The position numbers and the translations under genes were made by a program. Shown here in pieces: positions 5,181 to 19,189 of a stretch of DNA of 32,000 nt. The first letter of the stretch is position 1, and each line of letters begins with the position of its first letter. Below the pieces are notes generated by a model that saw only the letters and a list, made by a program, of their open reading frames with translations, was not told the DNA's origin and made no database searches. Origin of the DNA: Sinorhizobium meliloti (lineage in GTDB: Bacteria > Pseudomonadota > Alphaproteobacteria > Rhizobiales > Rhizobiaceae); NCBI RefSeq assembly GCF_017876815.1, contig NZ_JAGIOS010000001.1, forward strand, positions 930,001 through 962,000, given 5' to 3'.

Positions 5181-6725
5181 ATGGCCTTGTCCGCCAGCCT
5201 TCATCTGAGACAGTCGCAGTCGCTGGTCATGACGCCGCAGCTGATGCAGTCGATCCAGCTGCTTCAGATGAACCATCTGGAGCTCAGCCATTTCATCGCG
5301 CAGGAAGTCGAGAAGAACCCGCTGCTGGAGGTCCAGCCGGCCGATGAGCCAACGATATCGGATCGCGAGGATGCCGGTCCGCATCCGGCGGAGACCGGCG
5401 GCGAAACCGACGAGGCGGCAGGTCAGAGCGACCTTTACGACAGCGCCATGTCGAGATCCGGCGAGAGGCTCAGCGAAGGCCTTGACGCCGACTTCGCCAA
5501 CGTCTTCCCCGACGATACGGCGCCGCAGCGGGCGGATGCGCCCGAGCTTCTCGGCCAATGGAAATCCATGCCGGGTGCCGGCGACGCAGAGGGATACGAT
5601 CTCGACGATTTCGTTGGCGGCCGCAAGACGTTGAGGGAGACGCTCGCCGAGCAGCTGCCCTTCGCACTCAGCGCTGTCTCCGATCGGCTGATCGCCCGGT
5701 ATTTCATCGACCAGCTCGATGATGCCGGCTACCTGCACGCCGACCTCGCCGAGACCGCGGAGACGCTGGGCGCGGCAGGCGAGGACGTGGCGCGCGTGCT
5801 GCACATGCTTCAGCAGTTCGATCCGCCGGGCGTCTTCGCGCGCACGCTTGGCGAATGTCTTGCCATTCAGCTGCGCGCCCGCAATCGTCTCGACCCGGCG
5901 ATGGAAGCGCTCGTGGCCAATCTCGAGCTCCTGGCACGGCGCGATTTCGCAAGCCTCAAGAAGATCTGCGGCGTCGACGAGGAAGACCTGATCGATATGC
6001 TCGCCGAGATCCGCAAGCTCGATCCGAAACCGGGCACCAGCTTCGAAACCGGTGTGTTCGAGGCCATCATTCCCGACGTCGTCGTGCGCGCCGCACCCGA
6101 TGGCGGCTGGCTTGTTGAGCTCAATCCGGATGCCCTGCCCCGGGTTCTCGTCAACCACGACTATTTCACAGAAATATCGCGCTCCAGCCGGAAGAACAGC
6201 GGCGAACAGGCCTTTCTCAACGAGTGCCTGCAGAATGCCAACTGGCTGACGCGCAGCCTCGATCAGCGCGCCAGGACGATCATGAAGGTGGCGAGCGAAA
6301 TCGTCCGGCAGCAGGACGCCTTCCTCATCCACGGCGTCGGCCACCTGCGCCCGCTGAACCTCAGGATCGTCGCGGACGCGATCAAGATGCACGAGTCGAC
6401 GGTGAGCCGGGTCACCTCCAACAAATACATGCTGACCCCGCGCGGGCTCTTCGAATTGAAATATTTCTTCACGGTCTCGATCGGCTCGGCGGAAAACGGC
6501 GATGCACATTCGGCCGAGTCCGTGCGCCATCGCATCCGCACGATGATCAATCAGGAAAGCGCCGATGCCGTGCTCTCGGACGACGACATCGTCGACGTCC
6601 TCAAGCAGGCCGGCGTCGATATCGCCAGACGCACCGTCGCAAAATATCGCGAGGCGATGAGCATCCCCTCCTCCGTCCAGCGCCGCCGCGAGAAGCGGGC
6701 GCTGGCCAAGGCCGCGGGATTCTGA
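5181..6725 (+). CDS. rpoN: RNA polymerase sigma-54 factor
   Basis: The N-terminus is the Gln/Leu-rich region I (LRQSQSLVMTPQLMQSIQLLQMNHLEL). The C-terminus has the HTH and the RpoN box (ARRTVAKYREAMSIPSS). Confidence 0.97.
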   Translation: MALSASLHLRQSQSLVMTPQLMQSIQLLQMNHLELSHFIAQEVEKNPLLEVQPADEPTISDREDAGPHPAETGGETDEAAGQSDLYDSAMSRSGERLSEGLDADFANVFPDDTAPQRADAPELLGQWKSMPGAGDAEGYDLDDFVGGRKTLRETLAEQLPFALSAVSDRLIARYFIDQLDDAGYLHADLAETAETLGAAGEDVARVLHMLQQFDPPGVFARTLGECLAIQLRARNRLDPAMEALVANLELLARRDFASLKKICGVDEEDLIDMLAEIRKLDPKPGTSFETGVFEAIIPDVVVRAAPDGGWLVELNPDALPRVLVNHDYFTEISRSSRKNSGEQAFLNECLQNANWLTRSLDQRARTIMKVASEIVRQQDAFLIHGVGHLRPLNLRIVADAIKMHESTVSRVTSNKYMLTPRGLFELKYFFTVSIGSAENGDAHSAESVRHRIRTMINQESADAVLSDDDIVDVLKQAGVDIARRTVAKYREAMSIPSSVQRRREKRALAKAAGF

Positions 6726-12732: not shown

Positions 12733-13914
12733 ATGCAGATAGCCCCGCTTTCAGCGATCGGTGACGGCATGGACCCCGGTTTCGGGGTCTATGTGCACTG
12801 GCCCTTCTGCGCGGCGAAATGCCCCTATTGCGACTTCAATAGCCATGTGCGCCATCAGCCGGTGGATCAGCCTCGCTTCGTCGCCGCATTCCTGAAGGAA
12901 ATGGCCGCGGTGCGCGCGCTTTCCGGTCCGAGAACCGTCACCAGCATTTTCATGGGCGGGGGTACCCCGTCTCTGATGGACCCTCGGACGGTGGAGGCGA
13001 TCCTCGACGGCATTGCCCGGCAGTGGCACGTGCCTGATGGCATCGAGATCACCATGGAGGCGAACCCGTCCAGCGTCGAGGCGACGCGCTTCCGCGGCTA
13101 TCGGGCGGCCGGCGTCAACCGCGTCTCGCTCGGCGTACAGGCTCTCAACGACCGTGACCTCAAATTTCTCGGACGGCTGCACGATGTCGAGAATGCGCTG
13201 AAGGCGATACGGCTCGCGCGCGAGATCTTTCCGCGCATGTCCTTCGACCTTATCTATGCGCGGCCGAACCAGACGGTCGAGGAATGGGAGCGGGAGCTGA
13301 AGGAGGCGGTTTCCTACGCCGTCGATCATCTGTCGCTCTACCAGCTTACCATCGAGGAAGGGACGCCCTTCTACGGCCTGCACAAGGCAGGGAAACTCGT
13401 CGTTCCGGATGGCGAGCAGTCGGCGGTTCTCTACGAGGCCACGCAGGAGATCACCGCTGATATCGGCATGCCGGCCTATGAGGTCTCCAATCATGCCCGG
13501 CCGGGGGCCGAGAGCCGGCACAACCTCACCTATTGGCGCTACGGCGACTATGCGGGCATCGGCCCCGGCGCCCACGGGCGGCTGGCGATCGGATCAGGCA
13601 AGATCGCGACCGCAACCGAGCGCAACCCGGAGGCATGGCTGCAACGCGTCGAAGAGTGCGGCGAAGGCCTGGTCGAGCGGGAACTGCTCGATTTCGAGGC
13701 GCAGGCCGATGAGCTTTTGCTGATGGGGTTGAGGCTGCGCGAAGGCGTCGATCTCGCCCGCTGGCAGACCCTCTCGGGCCGCGATCCGGATCCGGCCCGG
13801 GAAGAATTCCTGATCGAGCATGGTTTCATCGAGCGGATCGGCAATTCTCGGCTGCGCTGCACGCCCGCCGGAATGCTGATCCTCGACGCCGTGGTGGCCG
13901 ACCTCGCCTGCTGA
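12733..13914 (+). CDS. hemW: Radical SAM heme chaperone HemW (HemN-like, oxygen-independent coproporphyrinogen oxidase family)
   Basis: It has the radical-SAM CxxxCxxC motif in VYVHWPFCAAKCPYCDFNS, then GGGTPSL and the HemN C-terminal domain. Its size (393 aa) fits HemW/YggW rather than HemN. ATG 12769 is an alternative start. Confidence 0.9.
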   Translation: MQIAPLSAIGDGMDPGFGVYVHWPFCAAKCPYCDFNSHVRHQPVDQPRFVAAFLKEMAAVRALSGPRTVTSIFMGGGTPSLMDPRTVEAILDGIARQWHVPDGIEITMEANPSSVEATRFRGYRAAGVNRVSLGVQALNDRDLKFLGRLHDVENALKAIRLAREIFPRMSFDLIYARPNQTVEEWERELKEAVSYAVDHLSLYQLTIEEGTPFYGLHKAGKLVVPDGEQSAVLYEATQEITADIGMPAYEVSNHARPGAESRHNLTYWRYGDYAGIGPGAHGRLAIGSGKIATATERNPEAWLQRVEECGEGLVERELLDFEAQADELLLMGLRLREGVDLARWQTLSGRDPDPAREEFLIEHGFIERIGNSRLRCTPAGMLILDAVVADLAC

Positions 13915-13930
13915 TCGCGGGCCGAGCGGC

Positions 13931-14797
13931 TCAGCCGCCTTCCTTCACCGGTGCGACGATCCCCCAGGTAACTCCAAAGGGATCCCGGAGCTGGCCGTAA
14001 TGGTCGCCCCAGAATGCGATCTCCAGCGGCATCGTCACCTCTGCGCCGGCCTCCACCGCCCGATTCCACCAGAAATCAGCGTCGTCGACGACGAGGTGCA
14101 GCACGAAGCCCTCCGGCGGCTTCCAGGGATGGCCGAATTCCGGGAAAGGATCGTTCAGCATCAATGCGCCGCCATTGATCGTCAGGTGGCAGTGGATGAG
14201 GCGCTTTCCATCCTGGGCATGTTTGCGGTCCTCCTCCTTGGCGCCGAAAGCGCGGACATAGAAGGCCGCCGCCGCATCTGCATCCTCCACGTTGAGATAG
14301 GCGATGACGCCGGGCATGGGCGGGCGCGACGGCGCTTGCCAGTCGACCTCGGACCGGGGATCGAGATCGATCGCCGCCTTGAAGCTTCCGTCCATGTAGA
14401 AGGGGACGGATTCGTGCTGATGGGCGATCTTCCATCCCCTGTCGGTGCGTGTCAGGCCCAAGGTCAGGCGATACCAGAGCGCCGCCTTCTGGCCATCGTG
14501 CTTCTCGCCGGAAAGATGCGTCAGCGCAGTGGCGAAGGCGACGTCGCCGCTCACCGAAACGTCGAGCTCCTCGAGGGTGAAGCCGAGCGGCCCTTTCCAC
14601 GTGGAAAACCACTGCTCAAGGCCGCCGGCATCTGCGTCGGAAGCCTTGAGGGGGGGCGCCAGCGAAAAGACGAGGCAATCTTCCGTGCCGTGGGCGAGGA
14701 CGCGGGCGGCATCCTTCCGGCGCAGCGCCTCCGCCCAGTCCCCGATTACCTCCTCGATCTCCGCAACGGCCGCATTCCTGCTCTCGGTAATGGTCAT
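13931..14797 (-). CDS. Two-domain protein: N-terminal NTF2-like (SnoaL/DUF4440-type) fused to a C-terminal VOC (glyoxalase/PhnB-like) domain
   Basis: Residues 1-135 (IGDWAEALRRKDAARVL...ALWYRLTLGLTRTDRGWKIAHQHESVPFYMD) follow the SnoaL-like/ketosteroid-isomerase-like pattern. Residues about 160-288 (VIAYLNVEDADAAAAFYVRAFGAKE...HCHLTINGGALMLND...WGDHYGQLRDPFGVTWGI) follow the PhnB-type VOC pattern. The start is ATG 14797 with a GGAGGA ribosome-binding site, 15 nt after the upstream gene. Confidence 0.75.
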   Translation of the reverse strand: MTITESRNAAVAEIEEVIGDWAEALRRKDAARVLAHGTEDCLVFSLAPPLKASDADAGGLEQWFSTWKGPLGFTLEELDVSVSGDVAFATALTHLSGEKHDGQKAALWYRLTLGLTRTDRGWKIAHQHESVPFYMDGSFKAAIDLDPRSEVDWQAPSRPPMPGVIAYLNVEDADAAAAFYVRAFGAKEEDRKHAQDGKRLIHCHLTINGGALMLNDPFPEFGHPWKPPEGFVLHLVVDDADFWWNRAVEAGAEVTMPLEIAFWGDHYGQLRDPFGVTWGIVAPVKEGG

Positions 14798-14812
14798 GAC
14801 CCGGTCCTCCTC

Positions 14813-15295
14813 TCAGAGTTTCGCAACGAGCGTCGCAAGCTGATCGGCGCATTGGCCCCAGCCCTCGTGGAAGCCCATCTTCTCATGGGCATCGCGGTCC
14901 TCGACGCTCCAATGGAGCGCGCGGGCCGTATAGCGGGTCTTGCCGCCCTCGTTCTCGAAGGTCATGACCGCCGTCATGAACGGCTTCTCGGACGGCTTCC
15001 AGGCTTCCGTAAAGGCATCGGTGACGACGATCTTCTCGTTCGGCACGACTTCCAGATAGACGCCCTGATTAGGATAGAGTTCACCCTCGGGCGAACGCAT
15101 GACAAAGCGGTTGGTGCCGCCCGCCCTGACGTCGAGCTCCGCTTCCGTGATCGTCCACGGCAGAGGAGCGAACCACTGCTTCAGAAGCTCGGCTTCCGTG
15201 AAGGCCCGGTAGACCTTCTCGCGCGGGGCATCGATCAGCCGTGTCAGAACCAGTTCGCGTTCGCCGCCGGAATTGGTGTCGGTCGCTGCAGTCAT
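14813..15295 (-). CDS. SRPBCC-family protein (Aha1/AHSA1-like, activator of Hsp90 ATPase homolog domain)
   Basis: These are the last 160 codons of ORF 14813..16006. ELVLTRLIDAPREKVYRAFTEAELLKQWFAP...VMTFENEGGKTRYTARALHWSVEDRDAHEKMGFHEGWGQCADQLATL matches the AHSA1/SRPBCC pattern. The start is ATG 15295, with GGAGGA eight nucleotides upstream. Confidence 0.8.
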   Translation of the reverse strand: MTAATDTNSGGERELVLTRLIDAPREKVYRAFTEAELLKQWFAPLPWTITEAELDVRAGGTNRFVMRSPEGELYPNQGVYLEVVPNEKIVVTDAFTEAWKPSEKPFMTAVMTFENEGGKTRYTARALHWSVEDRDAHEKMGFHEGWGQCADQLATLVAKL

Positions 15296-15327
15296 TTTCG
15301 AAATCCTCCATGTTGGTTCATTCCAAG

Positions 15328-15354
15328 GACGAAGGAGGATGCCGCCTGCCGACA
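15328..15354 (-). promoter_or_regulatory. Candidate ECF-sigma-dependent promoter P2, upstream of the SRPBCC and NTF2::VOC genes
   Basis: The minus strand reads CCC-TGTCGGC-aggcggcatcctcc-TTCGTC-CT: TGTCGG (15354-15349), a 17-nt spacer, then CGTC (15331-15328). It lies 32 nt upstream of ATG 15295. The architecture is identical to the site at 17037-17063. Confidence 0.55.
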
Positions 15355-15369
15355 GGGGCCAGAAAAAAT

Positions 15370-16641
15370 TTATCGCTTTTCTTCTTCCGCGACCGTCGCC
15401 GGCTCGGCCGCGAGGTGATCGAGCTGCATGCGGATATAGGCCGCTTCGGACGCGTTGGTGGCCAGTGCGATCGCCCGGTCGAAGGCGGTGCGCGCCTCGC
15501 ATGCCCGGCCGAGCTGCTTCAAAAGGCCGCCGCGCAGGCCGTGATAATAGAAATAGCCGGAAAGCCTCTCCCCAAGGGGCTCCACCATCGCCAGTGCGGC
15601 CTCCGGTCCCTCGCGTTTCGAGACCGCGACCGCGCGATTGAGCGTGACGACCGGCGAGGGCTGCAGGCGCTCGAGCGCCTGGTAGAGGAGGTCGATCTCC
15701 TCCCAATCCGTCTGCTCCGGACGTTCGGCGCGGGCATGCAGGGCCGCGATTGCTGCCTGTATCTGGTAGGGACCGGGGCGGCGATGGCGCATTGCTTTGT
15801 CGATCATCGCCAGCGCCTCGGTGATCATCGGCCGGCTCCAGAGCCGCCGATCCTGATCTTCGAGCAGGACGACGGCACCATTGGCATCGAAGCGCGCGCG
15901 GGCGCGCGAATGCTGGAGCAGCAGAAGCGCCGTCAGCCCCATCATTTCCGGCTCGGCGGGAAACAGCCGCAGCAGCAGCCGCGACAGGCGGATCGCCTCG
16001 TCGCAAAGATCGGCGGAGACGCCCTCGGGGCCGTTCATCGCCGAATAGCCCTCGTTGAAGACAAGGTAGATCATCGTCGCGACCGCTGCGAGCCGCTCGG
16101 CGCGATCGACGGCATCGGGTGTCTCGAACGGGATGCCGGCGGCTGCGACGCGGGCCTTGGCGCGGGTGATGCGCTGCTCCATCGCCGCTTCGCTGACGAG
16201 AAAGGCACGGGCGATCTGCCTGACGGAGAGCCCCGATACGATGCGCAGTGCAAGCGCGATCTGCTGGGTTGCCGGAAGCGCCGGGTTGCTGCAGACGAAG
16301 AGCAGCCGCAGGATGTCGTCGCGGTAATGCGCCCCGTCGAGGCGATCGGCGAGTTCACTCTCCCGGTCGTCGAGATCGGAGAGCAGTTCCTCCGGCGGCA
16401 GTGCCGTCTCGCGCGACTGCCGCCGCACCTTGTCGATGCCGCTGTTGCGGCCGACGAAGATGAGCCAGGCGGCGGGATCGCGCGGCGGACCGGTGCGGGG
16501 CCAGTTTTTCAGCGCACGGATACAGGCCTCCTGGAACGCCTCCTCCGCCAGATCGAGATTGCGAAAGTAACGCAGCAGCGCACCCATTGCCTGCGGCCGC
16601 GCGGAAACAAGAGCAAGATCGATCCAGCCTGTGTCGGTCAT
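15370..16641 (-). CDS. ECF-family RNA polymerase sigma factor with a long C-terminal extension (COG4941/DUF6596 type, ECF42-like)
   Basis: Region 2 is LDLAEEAFQEACIRALKNWPRTGPPRDPAAWLIFVGRNSGIDKVRR. Region 4 is PATQQIALALRIVSGLSVRQIARAFLVSEAAMEQRITRAKARV. About 250 further residues follow, including the FNEGY motif (MIYLVFNEGYSA) and helical-repeat-like sequence. Its ATG overlaps the stop of the upstream YCII gene (ATGA at 16638-16641). Confidence 0.88.
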   Translation of the reverse strand: MTDTGWIDLALVSARPQAMGALLRYFRNLDLAEEAFQEACIRALKNWPRTGPPRDPAAWLIFVGRNSGIDKVRRQSRETALPPEELLSDLDDRESELADRLDGAHYRDDILRLLFVCSNPALPATQQIALALRIVSGLSVRQIARAFLVSEAAMEQRITRAKARVAAAGIPFETPDAVDRAERLAAVATMIYLVFNEGYSAMNGPEGVSADLCDEAIRLSRLLLRLFPAEPEMMGLTALLLLQHSRARARFDANGAVVLLEDQDRRLWSRPMITEALAMIDKAMRHRRPGPYQIQAAIAALHARAERPEQTDWEEIDLLYQALERLQPSPVVTLNRAVAVSKREGPEAALAMVEPLGERLSGYFYYHGLRGGLLKQLGRACEARTAFDRAIALATNASEAAYIRMQLDHLAAEPATVAEEEKR

Positions 16642-17012
16642 GAGGGCAGCTCACCGGGTTTATAAAGCGCGAGCGGCCGGACCTCGTAGGAGCCCGTGCT
16701 CGGATTGGCGTTACTCAGATCGCGCGCGAAGTCGAGCGCCTCATCCAGCGAGGCGCAATCGATCAGATAGAAGCCGAGCAACTGTTCCTTGGTCTCGGCG
16801 AAGGGGCCGTCCATGACGATCGTCTCGCCGGCGCTGTGGCGCAGCGTCGCCGCCGCCGTCGTCGGCACCAGGCGCGCGACGGGCCCCAGCTTGCCCGCTT
16901 CGACATATTTGCGTTGGACGGCGCTCAGATCACGCATGACCCTCTCGTCCTCCTCCTTGCTCCAGGCACTGGTGACGCTTTCATCGTTGTAGCAAAGCAC
17001 GGCGTAAAGCAT
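16638..17012 (-). CDS. YciI/YCII-family protein with the DGPF signature
   Basis: The 124-aa protein reads MLYAVLCYNDES...TIVMDGPFAETKEQLLGFYLIDCASLDEALDFA, which is the DGPF-type YCII-related domain. The start is ATG 17012, with GGAG seven nucleotides upstream. Confidence 0.88.
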   Translation of the reverse strand: MLYAVLCYNDESVTSAWSKEEDERVMRDLSAVQRKYVEAGKLGPVARLVPTTAAATLRHSAGETIVMDGPFAETKEQLLGFYLIDCASLDEALDFARDLSNANPSTGSYEVRPLALYKPGELPS

Positions 17013-17036
17013 TGAAAATCTCCGCTCTGGTCTGAA

Positions 17037-17063
17037 GACGAATGGCGCTATTGATAGCCGACA
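17037..17063 (-). promoter_or_regulatory. Candidate ECF-sigma-dependent promoter P1, upstream of the YCII-sigma pair (putative autoregulation)
   Basis: The minus strand reads GCT-TGTCGGC-tatcaatagcgcca-TTCGTC-TT: TGTCGG (17063-17058), a 17-nt spacer, then CGTC (17040-17037). It lies 24 nt upstream of ATG 17012 and just downstream of the dnaA terminator. Confidence 0.55.
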
Positions 17064-17087
17064 AGCGGGGCGAAAAAAACGCTCAAC

Positions 17088-17109
17088 AAAAAAGCCCGGC
17101 GGACCGGGC
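17088..17109 (-). terminator. Rho-independent terminator of dnaA
   Basis: The minus strand reads GCCCGG-tccg-CCGGGC followed by TTTTTTG. It begins 26 nt after the dnaA stop codon. Confidence 0.7.
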
Positions 17110-17135
17110 TTTCGTAACGTCGGGCTTTCCTGCCT

Positions 17136-18659
17136 CTATTCGTTGATCAGTCGCTTCAAAAGCTCGATCTCGTGGCTGAGCTTGGTGTCGGCAGAAATCA
17201 GTTCCTCGATCTTGCGCACAGCATGGAGCACGGTCGTGTGGTCGCGCCCGCCGAAGCGGCGGCCGATCTCGGGGAAGGAGCGCGGGGTCAGTGTCTTCGA
17301 CAGATACATGGCGATCTGGCGCGGCTTGACGATGACGCGGGTGCGGCGGTTGGAGACCAGCTCCTGACGCGAGACATTGTAATGCTTGGCGACGACGCGC
17401 TGGATATCTTCGATGCGGACGCGGCGCGGTTCCCCGGCATTGACGAGATGGCCGAGCAGTTCGTCGACCCGCTCGATCGAAAGCTGCGGCTCGAAGGAGC
17501 GGCGGAAGAGAAGCTGATTGAAGGCGCCCTCGAGTTCGCGGCCGCTGGCTGTCACGTTGCGGGCGACATGGCTCAGTATCTCGAGCGGAATCTCGAGCGA
17601 GGCATCGTCCTGGCGCGCCGCTTCGAGACGACGCTTCAGCATTTCCAGGCGCATCTCGTAGTCCGGCCCTTCCATCTCGATCGCCACGCCGCCTTGCAGG
17701 CGCGAGCGAACACGGCTGTCGAGCGATTCCAGCTCCCAGGGTGCACGGTCCGCGGCGACGACCACCTGCTTGGCGGAGTCGAGCAGCATGTTCAACAGAT
17801 GGCAGAACTCGTGCTGGATCGACTTGCCCTGCAGGAACTGCATGTCGTCGATAATGAGAAGGTCGATGTTGCGAAGCGATTCCTTCAGCGACAGCGCGTC
17901 ATTGTCGCGGATCGCCGTTGCGAAACGCCACATGAAATATTCGGCCGTCAGATAGACGACGCGTGGCGCGCGCGCACTCTGGAGGGCCGCGAGAGCGATC
18001 GCCTGCAGAAGATGCGTCTTGCCGAGACCAACGCTCGAATGGATGAAAAGCGGATTGAAGCGCACGGCGCCGGCGCCGGCCTCGGCAATCGTACGCGCTG
18101 CCGCGAGCGCGACCCGGTTCGACGAGCCCTCTACGAAACTATCGAAACCGTAGCGCTGATCGAGCGGCGAGCCGAAAAGCGGCGCCTGGACGGGTCTCGC
18201 CGGAGCTGCCGCAACCGCAGCGGCGGCAATTGCCACGGTGGGGGCCGCCGAACGGCGGGAGGGAGGGACGACCGCCGCTTCGGCAGCCGCGGCAACGCTC
18301 TCTTCAGGAGCCGTCGGGCGATGACCGCGGGTCGCGGTGCGCACGAGGATCTCCACCTTCAGTATCTCGCTGTCCTCCTGCTGGACGAGCGTGGTGATCA
18401 GATCGAGATAGCGATTATTGATCCAGGACTTCAGAAAAGTCGTCGGGACCGAGAGGCGCACGACGCTTTTCGACACTGAATGGAGCTTGAGGCGTCCAAA
18501 CCAACTTGCGAAGACATCCGGACCGACCTGGGCTTTCAAGCGCGCACTTACCCGCTCAAACAGTGCGTCATGCCGCATGTCGTGTTTTTCCCCCGCCGCC
18601 TGAGACTGATTGCTTCCGGCCTGAAAACCTCCAGGTGCCGTCGCCAAATTCATCCGCAT
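17136..18659 (-). CDS. dnaA: Chromosomal replication initiator protein DnaA
   Basis: Domain I is [26 protein letters not shown]. The AAA+ Walker A is [11 protein letters not shown], and Walker B is [11 protein letters not shown]. The domain IV DNA-binding signature is [37 protein letters not shown]. The start is ambiguous: the maximal ORF begins at 18749, ATG 18659 has the best SD (GGAAGG, N7), and ATG 18578 gives the shortest conserved N-terminus. Confidence 0.95.
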
Positions 18660-19189
18660 CTTGCCGCCTTCCAATTTCATTATTCCGATGCCGTCATTTC
18701 TGGCGGCCTCATCTTTTATGCCCGCCCGCCACGGCCGCTCGAAAGCCATGCCGCGTCAGCCGGACGCTCTGATACGCACCGAACCGGGCTCCTCATATCC
18801 CGCCACGGCACGCTGCGCTCATTCGCTTGCCTTCGCCTCAAGCAAATGTCCCCTCGCACTTCGCCTTACCGATTCTGCACGGCTCTTTTCAAGCCGACCG
18901 GAACCGTTTTTCCTCGTTGCCGGCTGACCGCACCCTCGTACGTAGCGGACAGCCCGAGCCTCCTTCTTCCTGCTCCAACGCATTCACAAGGCTAAGCCCT
19001 GCCGGCAACCACAAGACGAAACGTCCTCGCTCCGGTGCGAAGGCTCGCCCGGTTTTATCGTCTCGACTTGTTTGATTGATCGACGTGGAATTAACCCCGC
19101 CACAGGCGACGGAAAGCCCAAAGTCACCCCGATTGGAATGACCCTTAAACTTCCTCGTACAGATGTAATCTGTGTCCCCTGTGGAAGGC

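Follow-up and report, generated by a model that had tools for sequence, protein, structure and literature searches.

Two conserved ECF42-type promoter motifs at the YCII-rpoE10 locus of Sinorhizobium meliloti

Liu, Pinto and Mascher are said to have described, in J Bacteriol in 2018, DGPF (YCII-related) proteins as the targets of the ECF42 sigma factors of Streptomyces venezuelae and a TGTCGA-like sequence as their motif. ECF42 sigma factors are local regulators with small regulons (PMC7776599). They possess a TPR-containing C-terminal extension (PMC6180224, PMC8999054) that is needed for activity and for which a role in protein-protein interaction has been proposed (PMC8999054). The sole ECF42-group sigma factor of S. 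meliloti is RpoE10, the product of SMc01150, which was assigned to the group with ECFfinder in the study of strain Rm1021 by Lang et al. (2018, mSphere, PMC6180224). Overexpression of RpoE10 in that study raised SMc01149 by 1.60 log2 and SMc01148 by 1.85 log2, about 3-fold, and also raised the pSymB operon SMb20475-SMb20474, the promoter of which likewise reads TGTCGG-N17-CGTC (PMC6180224). According to these authors, the RpoE10 motif agrees with the ECF42 predictions. The gene directly upstream of the sigma gene, SMc01151, was unchanged, and the authors concluded that RpoE10 is apparently not an activator of its own operon (PMC6180224).

The DNA analyzed here is a 32-kb stretch of the S. meliloti chromosome, referred to as the window. 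On its minus strand the order is dnaA, a terminator, a first promoter motif (site 1), a YCII gene, the sigma gene, a second promoter motif (site 2), an AHSA1/SRPBCC gene and a gene encoding a SnoaL_3 plus VOC protein. The features are the following, all on the minus strand.

17136-18749, minus strand: dnaA.
17088-17112, minus strand: intrinsic terminator of dnaA, AAAGCCCGG-TCCG-CCGGGCTTT followed by a T run (from the sequence and a terminator-like site prediction).
17073-17083, minus strand: A/T-rich tract, UP-element-like, 11-20 nt upstream of the site 1 -35 element.
17058-17063, minus strand: site 1 -35 element TGTCGG (window scan; verbatim in Table 1 of PMC6180224; strict motif conserved in 71 of 80 loci).
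17035-17040, minus strand: site 1 -10 element, CGTC with the conserved T at +2 (CGTCTT), overlapped by the published 5'-RACE end.
16638-17012, minus strand: SMc01151, YCII family, first gene of the sigma operon (Pfam PF03795, E 1e-20).
15370-16641, minus strand: rpoE10 (SMc01150), ECF42-group sigma factor of 423 aa (Pfam; NCBIfam; classification in PMC6180224).
15361-15372, minus strand: A/T-rich tract TAAATTTTTTCT upstream of the site 2 -35 element, including the sigma stop codon.
15349-15354, minus strand: site 2 -35 element TGTCGG (window scan; Table 1 of PMC6180224).
15323-15331, minus strand: site 2 -10 element with the cargo-class extension CGTCCTTGG (from the sequence and cargo-promoter conservation).
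15319, minus strand: transcription start site of SMc01149, a G 9 nt after CGTC (RNA-seq and 5'-RACE; Table 1 and footnote c of PMC6180224).
14813-15295, minus strand: SMc01149, AHSA1/SRPBCC, RpoE10-induced cargo gene (Pfam PF08327, E 8e-38; +1.60 log2).
13931-14797, minus strand: SMc01148, SnoaL_3 and Glyoxalase/VOC fusion, RpoE10-induced and co-transcribed with SMc01149 (Pfam; +1.85 log2).

Both motifs of this locus are already in print. Table 1 of Lang et al. gives them as ECF42-type promoters, with the sequence TTTCGCCCCGCTTGTCGGCTATCAATAGCGCCATTCGTC for SMc01151 and CCCTGTCGGCAGGCGGCATCCTCCTTCGTCCTTGGAATg for SMc01149 (PMC6180224), and both 39-nt sequences are present in the window without a single difference, at 17075-17037 and 15357-15319. 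The YCII protein and the sigma factor encoded in the window are exact matches to S. meliloti R00369 and R00370, respectively. For this very locus, the 2018 publication already contains the motifs, sigma factor, start site and targets as well as the caveat on autoregulation, and nothing reported here is new in kind. The comparative analysis strengthens, on grounds of sequence conservation, the case that both sites are probably functional, and it refines the motif. The literature yielded no in vitro transcription, promoter mutagenesis or sigma deletion data for these sites.

The sigma factor of the window has the organization of an ECF42 protein. Its Pfam matches are Sigma70_r2 at residues 15-77 and Sigma70_r4_2 at residues 121-164, without region 1 or 3, which is the arrangement of regions 2 and 4 alone that characterizes the group, and its NCBIfam sigma70-ECF match is above the cut-off. 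The C-terminal extension of approximately 250 aa exceeds the length of at least about 200 aa of the long TPR-like ECF42 extension; it contains DUF6596 at residues 183-284 (E 2e-34) and a weak TPR_21 match, below the cut-off, at residues 365-411. The neighbors are those of an ECF42 gene as well, with YCII upstream, AHSA1 on the other side and no anti-sigma gene adjoining. The stop codon of SMc01151 overlaps the start codon of the sigma gene, an arrangement of translational coupling. Pfam agrees with the gene assignments that had been made from the sequence alone (YCII, sigma factor, SRPBCC and the cargo pair). The terminator isolates the YCII-rpoE10 operon from dnaA read-through. An Rfam scan of the whole window gave no family at threshold.

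On the minus strand, site 1 reads GCT TGTCGGC TATCAATAGCGCCA TTCGTC TT (17066-17035) and site 2 reads CCC TGTCGGC AGGCGGCATCCTCC TTCGTC CT (15357-15326); the motifs proper are TGTCGGCTATCAATAGCGCCATTCGTC at 17063-17037 and TGTCGGCAGGCGGCATCCTCCTTCGTC at 15354-15328. Each is intergenic and on the coding strand. Between CGTC and the ATG of the YCII gene (17012) there are 24 nt, and between CGTC and the ATG of the AHSA1/SRPBCC gene (15295) there are 32 nt, the same distances as in the initial annotation. That annotation had also described two identically spaced motifs and no others in 32 kb, with well under one match expected by chance, and our scan bears this out: TGTCGG-N17-CGTC matches exactly twice on both strands of the window, 0.12 matches are expected, and 0 of 100 dinucleotide-preserving shuffles reach two. 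A scan allowing one mismatch returned a single extra match, at 13099-13125 on the plus strand, where 4.0 are expected by chance. We considered that match as a further target and rejected it, because it lies within an ORF and the one-mismatch matches are fewer than chance predicts.

We compared 80 loci from different species, each encoding a sigma factor 69-95% identical to RpoE10 and together spanning Sinorhizobium/Ensifer, Shinella, Rhizobium, Neorhizobium, Mesorhizobium and some Caulobacterales. On the sigma strand we counted 128 strict motifs, where an analytic estimate from word frequencies gives 2.8, and on the opposite strand five, where the estimate is 2.3. The spacing is specific, with 128 matches at N17 and 0-11 at each of the other spacings from N10 to N25. 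The spacer sequence varies among genera while the hexamer and the tetramer stay constant, as one would expect if the promoter is functional and consists of two blocks. A YCII gene is directly upstream of the sigma gene in all 80 loci; a strict motif lies within 120 nt of its start codon in 71 of them, and in 70 CGTC ends 21-27 nt before that codon. One-mismatch variants are found upstream of YCII in eight of the nine loci without a strict motif, for a total of 79 of 80 at one mismatch or fewer. The initial annotation had made its reading depend on conservation at orthologous loci, and for site 1 this conservation is now evident. We also considered whether site 1 is an element linked to dnaA; this was rejected, since dnaA is the upstream neighbor in Sinorhizobium/Ensifer only and the motif persists in the other genera.

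The motif also marks genes beyond the sigma operon. When 400-1900 nt separate AHSA1 from the end of the sigma gene, as for example in loci L035, L036 and L044, the motif is still just upstream of AHSA1. Of the five opposite-strand matches, four closely precede glyoxalase genes that are divergent from the sigma gene, and the fifth precedes an AHSA1-like gene. Other genes preceded by the motif encode DoxX-like membrane proteins, a Polyketide_cyc2 SRPBCC protein and PhnB-like VOC proteins. The cargo class comprises 63 sites, nearly all of which are followed, after 11-135 nt, by an ORF with a Shine-Dalgarno sequence. Among the 135 strict matches (133 in the loci and two in the window), one is likely to be a chance match in coding sequence, at position 5435 of locus L027.

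Alignment of 134 sites refines the promoter in several respects. A T is present two bases after CGTC in 130 of the 134, and the -10 element is therefore better written CGTCNT. From 11 to 20 nt upstream of TGTCGG the A+T content is 79%, compared with 36% overall, in both promoter classes, and this stretch resembles an UP element. The A/T-rich tract is kept in orthologs whose promoter does not adjoin the sigma stop codon. The two classes differ after CGTC. Cargo promoters read CGTCCTTGG, with C at +1 in 59 of 63 sites, T at +2 in 62 of 63 and G at +4 in 55 of 63, whereas YCII promoters have T (41), C (15) or A (15) at +1 and no preference at +4; the site 1 counterpart of the cargo-class sequence is CGTCTTCAG. 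The extended bases that the initial annotation had seen in both sites, a C after TGTCGG and TT before CGTC, are indeed shared by the two motifs of the window; they are not generally conserved in the orthologs. A hairpin between the conserved CCTTGG after CGTC and the Shine-Dalgarno region (CCTTGGA/TCCAAGG), prompted by the Ensifer adhaerens sequence, was rejected because CCAAGGAG is nothing more than the Shine-Dalgarno sequence and the mapped transcription start is downstream of the 5' arm.

The combined evidence leads us to the conclusion, to which we give a probability of about 0.9, that both motifs are the chromosomal promoter motifs of RpoE10, with site 2 serving the cargo genes and site 1 the YCII-rpoE10 operon, probably with feedback. 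By analogy with the general mechanism of ECF sigma factors, sigma region 4 in the RpoE10 holoenzyme would recognize TGTCGG and region 2 would recognize CGTC(N)T, the two elements being separated by a fixed 17-nt spacer, and transcription would start about 9 nt downstream. Site 2 drives the cargo operon SMc01149-SMc01148 in dependence on RpoE10, as the literature has shown, and site 1, just past the dnaA terminator, is in this reading the conserved promoter of the YCII-rpoE10 operon. Signal-dependent positive feedback through site 1 is probable, judging by conservation, and was not seen in the single overexpression experiment. The earlier classification of the motifs as ECF promoters can be made more precise: both are of the ECF42 class, with -35 TGTCGG and -10 CGTC at fixed spacing.

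For site 2 the matter is settled. It begins 16 nt past the rpoE10 stop codon and is an RpoE10-dependent internal promoter of SMc01149-SMc01148, as attested by a start site 9 nt after CGTC that was mapped by both RNA-seq and 5'-RACE, by the induction of both genes by RpoE10 (PMC6180224) and by the conservation described here. An internal promoter for the cargo pair is what had been proposed from the sequence. The induction of the cargo genes by RpoE10 is only about 3-fold, which is a point against the RpoE10 reading.

Two published 5' ends fall within the -10 element itself. Data Set S2 of PMC6180224 contains an extra RNA-seq start for SMc01149, SMc_TSS00874, the sequence of which ends at the last C of CGTC (15328). 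The RACE end of SMc01151 would likewise be the last C of CGTC (17037), if the table sequence ends at the start as in all other rows. The 5' ends are then at the same relative position in both sites, a coincidence that is unexplained. Ends of this kind could result from processing of read-through transcripts or from a second initiation mode.

The initial annotation had further proposed positive autoregulation of the YCII-sigma pair through site 1, and this is not supported by the sole existing experiment, in which SMc01151 did not respond to RpoE10 overexpression. It had expected a start 6-9 nt downstream of CGTC, and at site 1 the published 5'-RACE end instead overlaps the motif (PMC6180224). 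It could be argued from these two observations that site 1 is not RpoE10-dependent in S. meliloti, that another promoter drives the operon and that the motif is vestigial or otherwise used; the systematic difference between YCII-class and cargo sites after CGTC, with T, C or A at +1 and no G at +4, is in keeping with such a view. We nevertheless consider it unlikely. Across genera, a vestigial site would not have been kept at 21-27 nt before the YCII start codon, where the motif is located in 70 of the 80 loci although its spacer diverges. A sigma-70 promoter scan of 13500-17500 found none, and the strong dnaA terminator directly upstream leaves only about 70 nt before the YCII gene for any promoter. 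The SMc01151 probe set was near background, with an average expression of 4.8 (PMC6180224), so that a modest induction could have been missed.

Two further points concern site 1. The overlapping sequence CTTGTC (17065-17060) was examined as a rhizobial -35 element (compare CTTGAC) and rejected, as there is no acceptable -10 element at 17 nt. The overexpression test has limits of its own: the proven targets responded only about 3-fold, and ECF42 activity is reported to need the C-terminal extension, probably together with a signal.

We therefore return to the reading in which both motifs belong to RpoE10. As the sole recognizable promoter before YCII, and one under purifying selection, site 1 very probably functions as a promoter. 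Its dependence on RpoE10 under some condition is rather likely, and positive autoregulation of the YCII-rpoE10 operon through it is plausible but unproven. One possible interpretation of the class-specific bases following CGTC is that they give the operon promoter a lower strength. A more specific proposal, which we regard as an even bet, is that site 1 is an autoregulatory promoter of reduced strength that depends on a signal, in contradiction to the published conclusion, within a regulon of YCII-sigma, AHSA1/SRPBCC, VOC/glyoxalase and DoxX genes. The proposal builds on a class difference maintained across genera: in Rhizobiales and relatives the YCII-sigma promoters read CGTC-(T/C/A)-T and are not conserved beyond that, in contrast to the CGTCCTTGG of cargo promoters. 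If this is true, the cargo genes would respond first and the feedback loop would engage only once the TPR extension is activated, and this alphaproteobacterial regulon would be conserved.

It is very improbable that the motifs are read by another regulator, such as the ECF41 sigma factor RpoE9 or a DNA-binding protein that represses or activates transcription. The idea has some basis in that positions 5-6 of the -35 hexamer are all that separates the ECF41 motif from the ECF42 motif (Table 1, PMC6180224). However, on the arrays SMc01149 and SMc01148 respond to RpoE10 only, and overexpression of RpoE9 has a single target (PMC6180224). The one-mismatch -35 variants in the 80 loci are TGTCGA, CGTCGG and GGTCGG and never TGTCAC (the GG at positions 5-6 is invariant in the strict matches by construction of the scan), and the motif accompanies an ECF42 sigma gene in every one of the 80 loci. 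Chance coincidence of short GC-rich words, ten fixed bases in a GC-rich genome, is refuted by 0.12 expected matches and no shuffle reaching two in the window, by 128 against 2.8 in the orthologous loci, by the intergenic, coding-strand position of both matches, and by the published start site and induction (PMC6180224).

The residual value of this locus lies in site 1, the motif of which is kept at a fixed distance in nearly all of the orthologous loci compared, yet the sole experiment showed no self-activation. Resolving its role would show whether ECF42 systems use positive feedback. The promoter pair is also well defined for seeking the inducing signal of an ECF42 system.

Three described systems bear comparison with this locus. 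The ECF42 sigma factors of Streptomyces venezuelae resemble RpoE10 in the long TPR C-terminal extension needed for activity, the absence of an anti-sigma factor, small local regulons and conserved synteny (PMC8999054, PMC7776599), although the phylum is different. The ECF41 system of S. meliloti, SMb20029-rpoE9, shares the TGTC..-N17-CGTC geometry and the start site 9 nt after CGTC, together with a regulatory C-terminal extension, the absence of an anti-sigma factor and a small local regulon to which the gene preceding the sigma gene belongs; the ECF41 motif given for comparison in the initial annotation, TGTCACA-N16-CGTC, agrees with the rpoE9 promoter in the table of PMC6180224. The ECF41 system differs at positions 5-6 of the -35 hexamer, which are AC and not GG, and in a SnoaL-like extension and a carboxymuconolactone decarboxylase neighbor where RpoE10 has TPR and a YCII gene. 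Its upstream gene is induced (SMb20029, +1.9 log2), whereas the RpoE10 upstream gene SMc01151 is not. The closest system consists of the RpoE10 promoters of Rm1021 themselves (SMc01151, SMc01149 and SMb20475; PMC6180224), to which the window is identical in the SMc01151 and SMc01149 sequences, in gene order, in the sigma factor and its ECF42 assignment, and in having an internal promoter for the cargo pair. To that description the present analysis adds cross-genus conservation, the strict N17 spacing, the T at +2, the A/T-rich tract and the class-specific CGTCCTTGG extension.

At the ECF42-type promoter motifs associated with the sigma factor RpoE10 (SMc01150) and its relatives, the sequence that follows the CGTC −10 element depends on promoter class. 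In the cargo class, represented in the window by site 2 upstream of the AHSA1/SRPBCC gene SMc01149, the sequence from CGTC onward reads CGTCCTTGG (window 15323-15331; loci L001-L080, the 80 orthologous alphaproteobacterial loci), whereas in the YCII-sigma class, represented by site 1 upstream of SMc01151, it reads CGTC(T/C/A)T, with nothing conserved beyond (window 17032-17040; the same loci). This difference is maintained across genera in the window and the 80 loci. Common to both classes is a near-invariant T at +2 after CGTC, present at 130 of 134 sites.

Published 5' ends fall within the −10 element itself. The RACE 5' end of SMc01151 is the last C of CGTC (17037, minus strand), if the sequence in the published table ends at the start (PMC6180224). 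For SMc01149, an additional RNA-seq start, SMc_TSS00874, is likewise the last C of CGTC (15328, minus strand), separate from the canonical start at 15319 (PMC6180224). Two promoters thus have a published 5' end at an identical relative position, which could represent either processed read-through RNA or a second mode of initiation.

If the start 9 nt after CGTC is taken over from S. meliloti, the cargo mRNAs of Rhizobium, Neorhizobium and related loci would begin with a 5'-terminal stem-loop, the sequence of which varies by lineage (AACAUC/GAUGUU, AACCUG/CAGGUU and GUCCGGCC/GGCCGGAU). The S. meliloti cargo mRNA has no 5'-terminal stem-loop. In two Ensifer genomes, an inverted-repeat-rich insertion of ~100 nt between the cargo promoter and the AHSA1 gene extends the 5' UTR from ~30 to ~130 nt.

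L036 4842-4890, L075 4307-4360, and minus-strand sites in L041 and L039: putative 5' stem-loops
L007 4318-4452 and L009 4319-4446: Ensifer insertion regions

Two other Ensifer loci encode a second, divergent YCII and ECF42-like sigma pair (39-42% identity; L019 5984-7255, L020 5975-7221) ~1.7 kb downstream of the first, so that paralogous ECF42 modules adjoin. The 90%-identity protein cluster containing the sigma factor also includes 160-aa SRPBCC proteins, the product of the downstream gene; this looks like a database clustering artefact rather than biology.

Upstream of the TGTCGG −35 element, both promoter classes possess an A/T-rich tract, with 79% A+T at 11-20 nt upstream compared with a background of 36% (window and 80 loci).

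15361-15372: A/T-rich tract of site 2, 11-20 nt upstream of TGTCGG
17073-17083: A/T-rich tract of site 1, 11-20 nt upstream of TGTCGG
17088-17112, minus strand: strong intrinsic terminator of dnaA, in which a 9-bp stem (AAAGCCCGG/CCGGGCTTT) closes a TCCG loop and is followed by a T run

Site 1 lies directly downstream of the dnaA terminator, and the T run past the terminator blends into the promoter's A/T-rich tract. Among the 80 loci, the tract is also found at promoters away from any stop codon or terminator, and because it persists there, it resembles an UP element.
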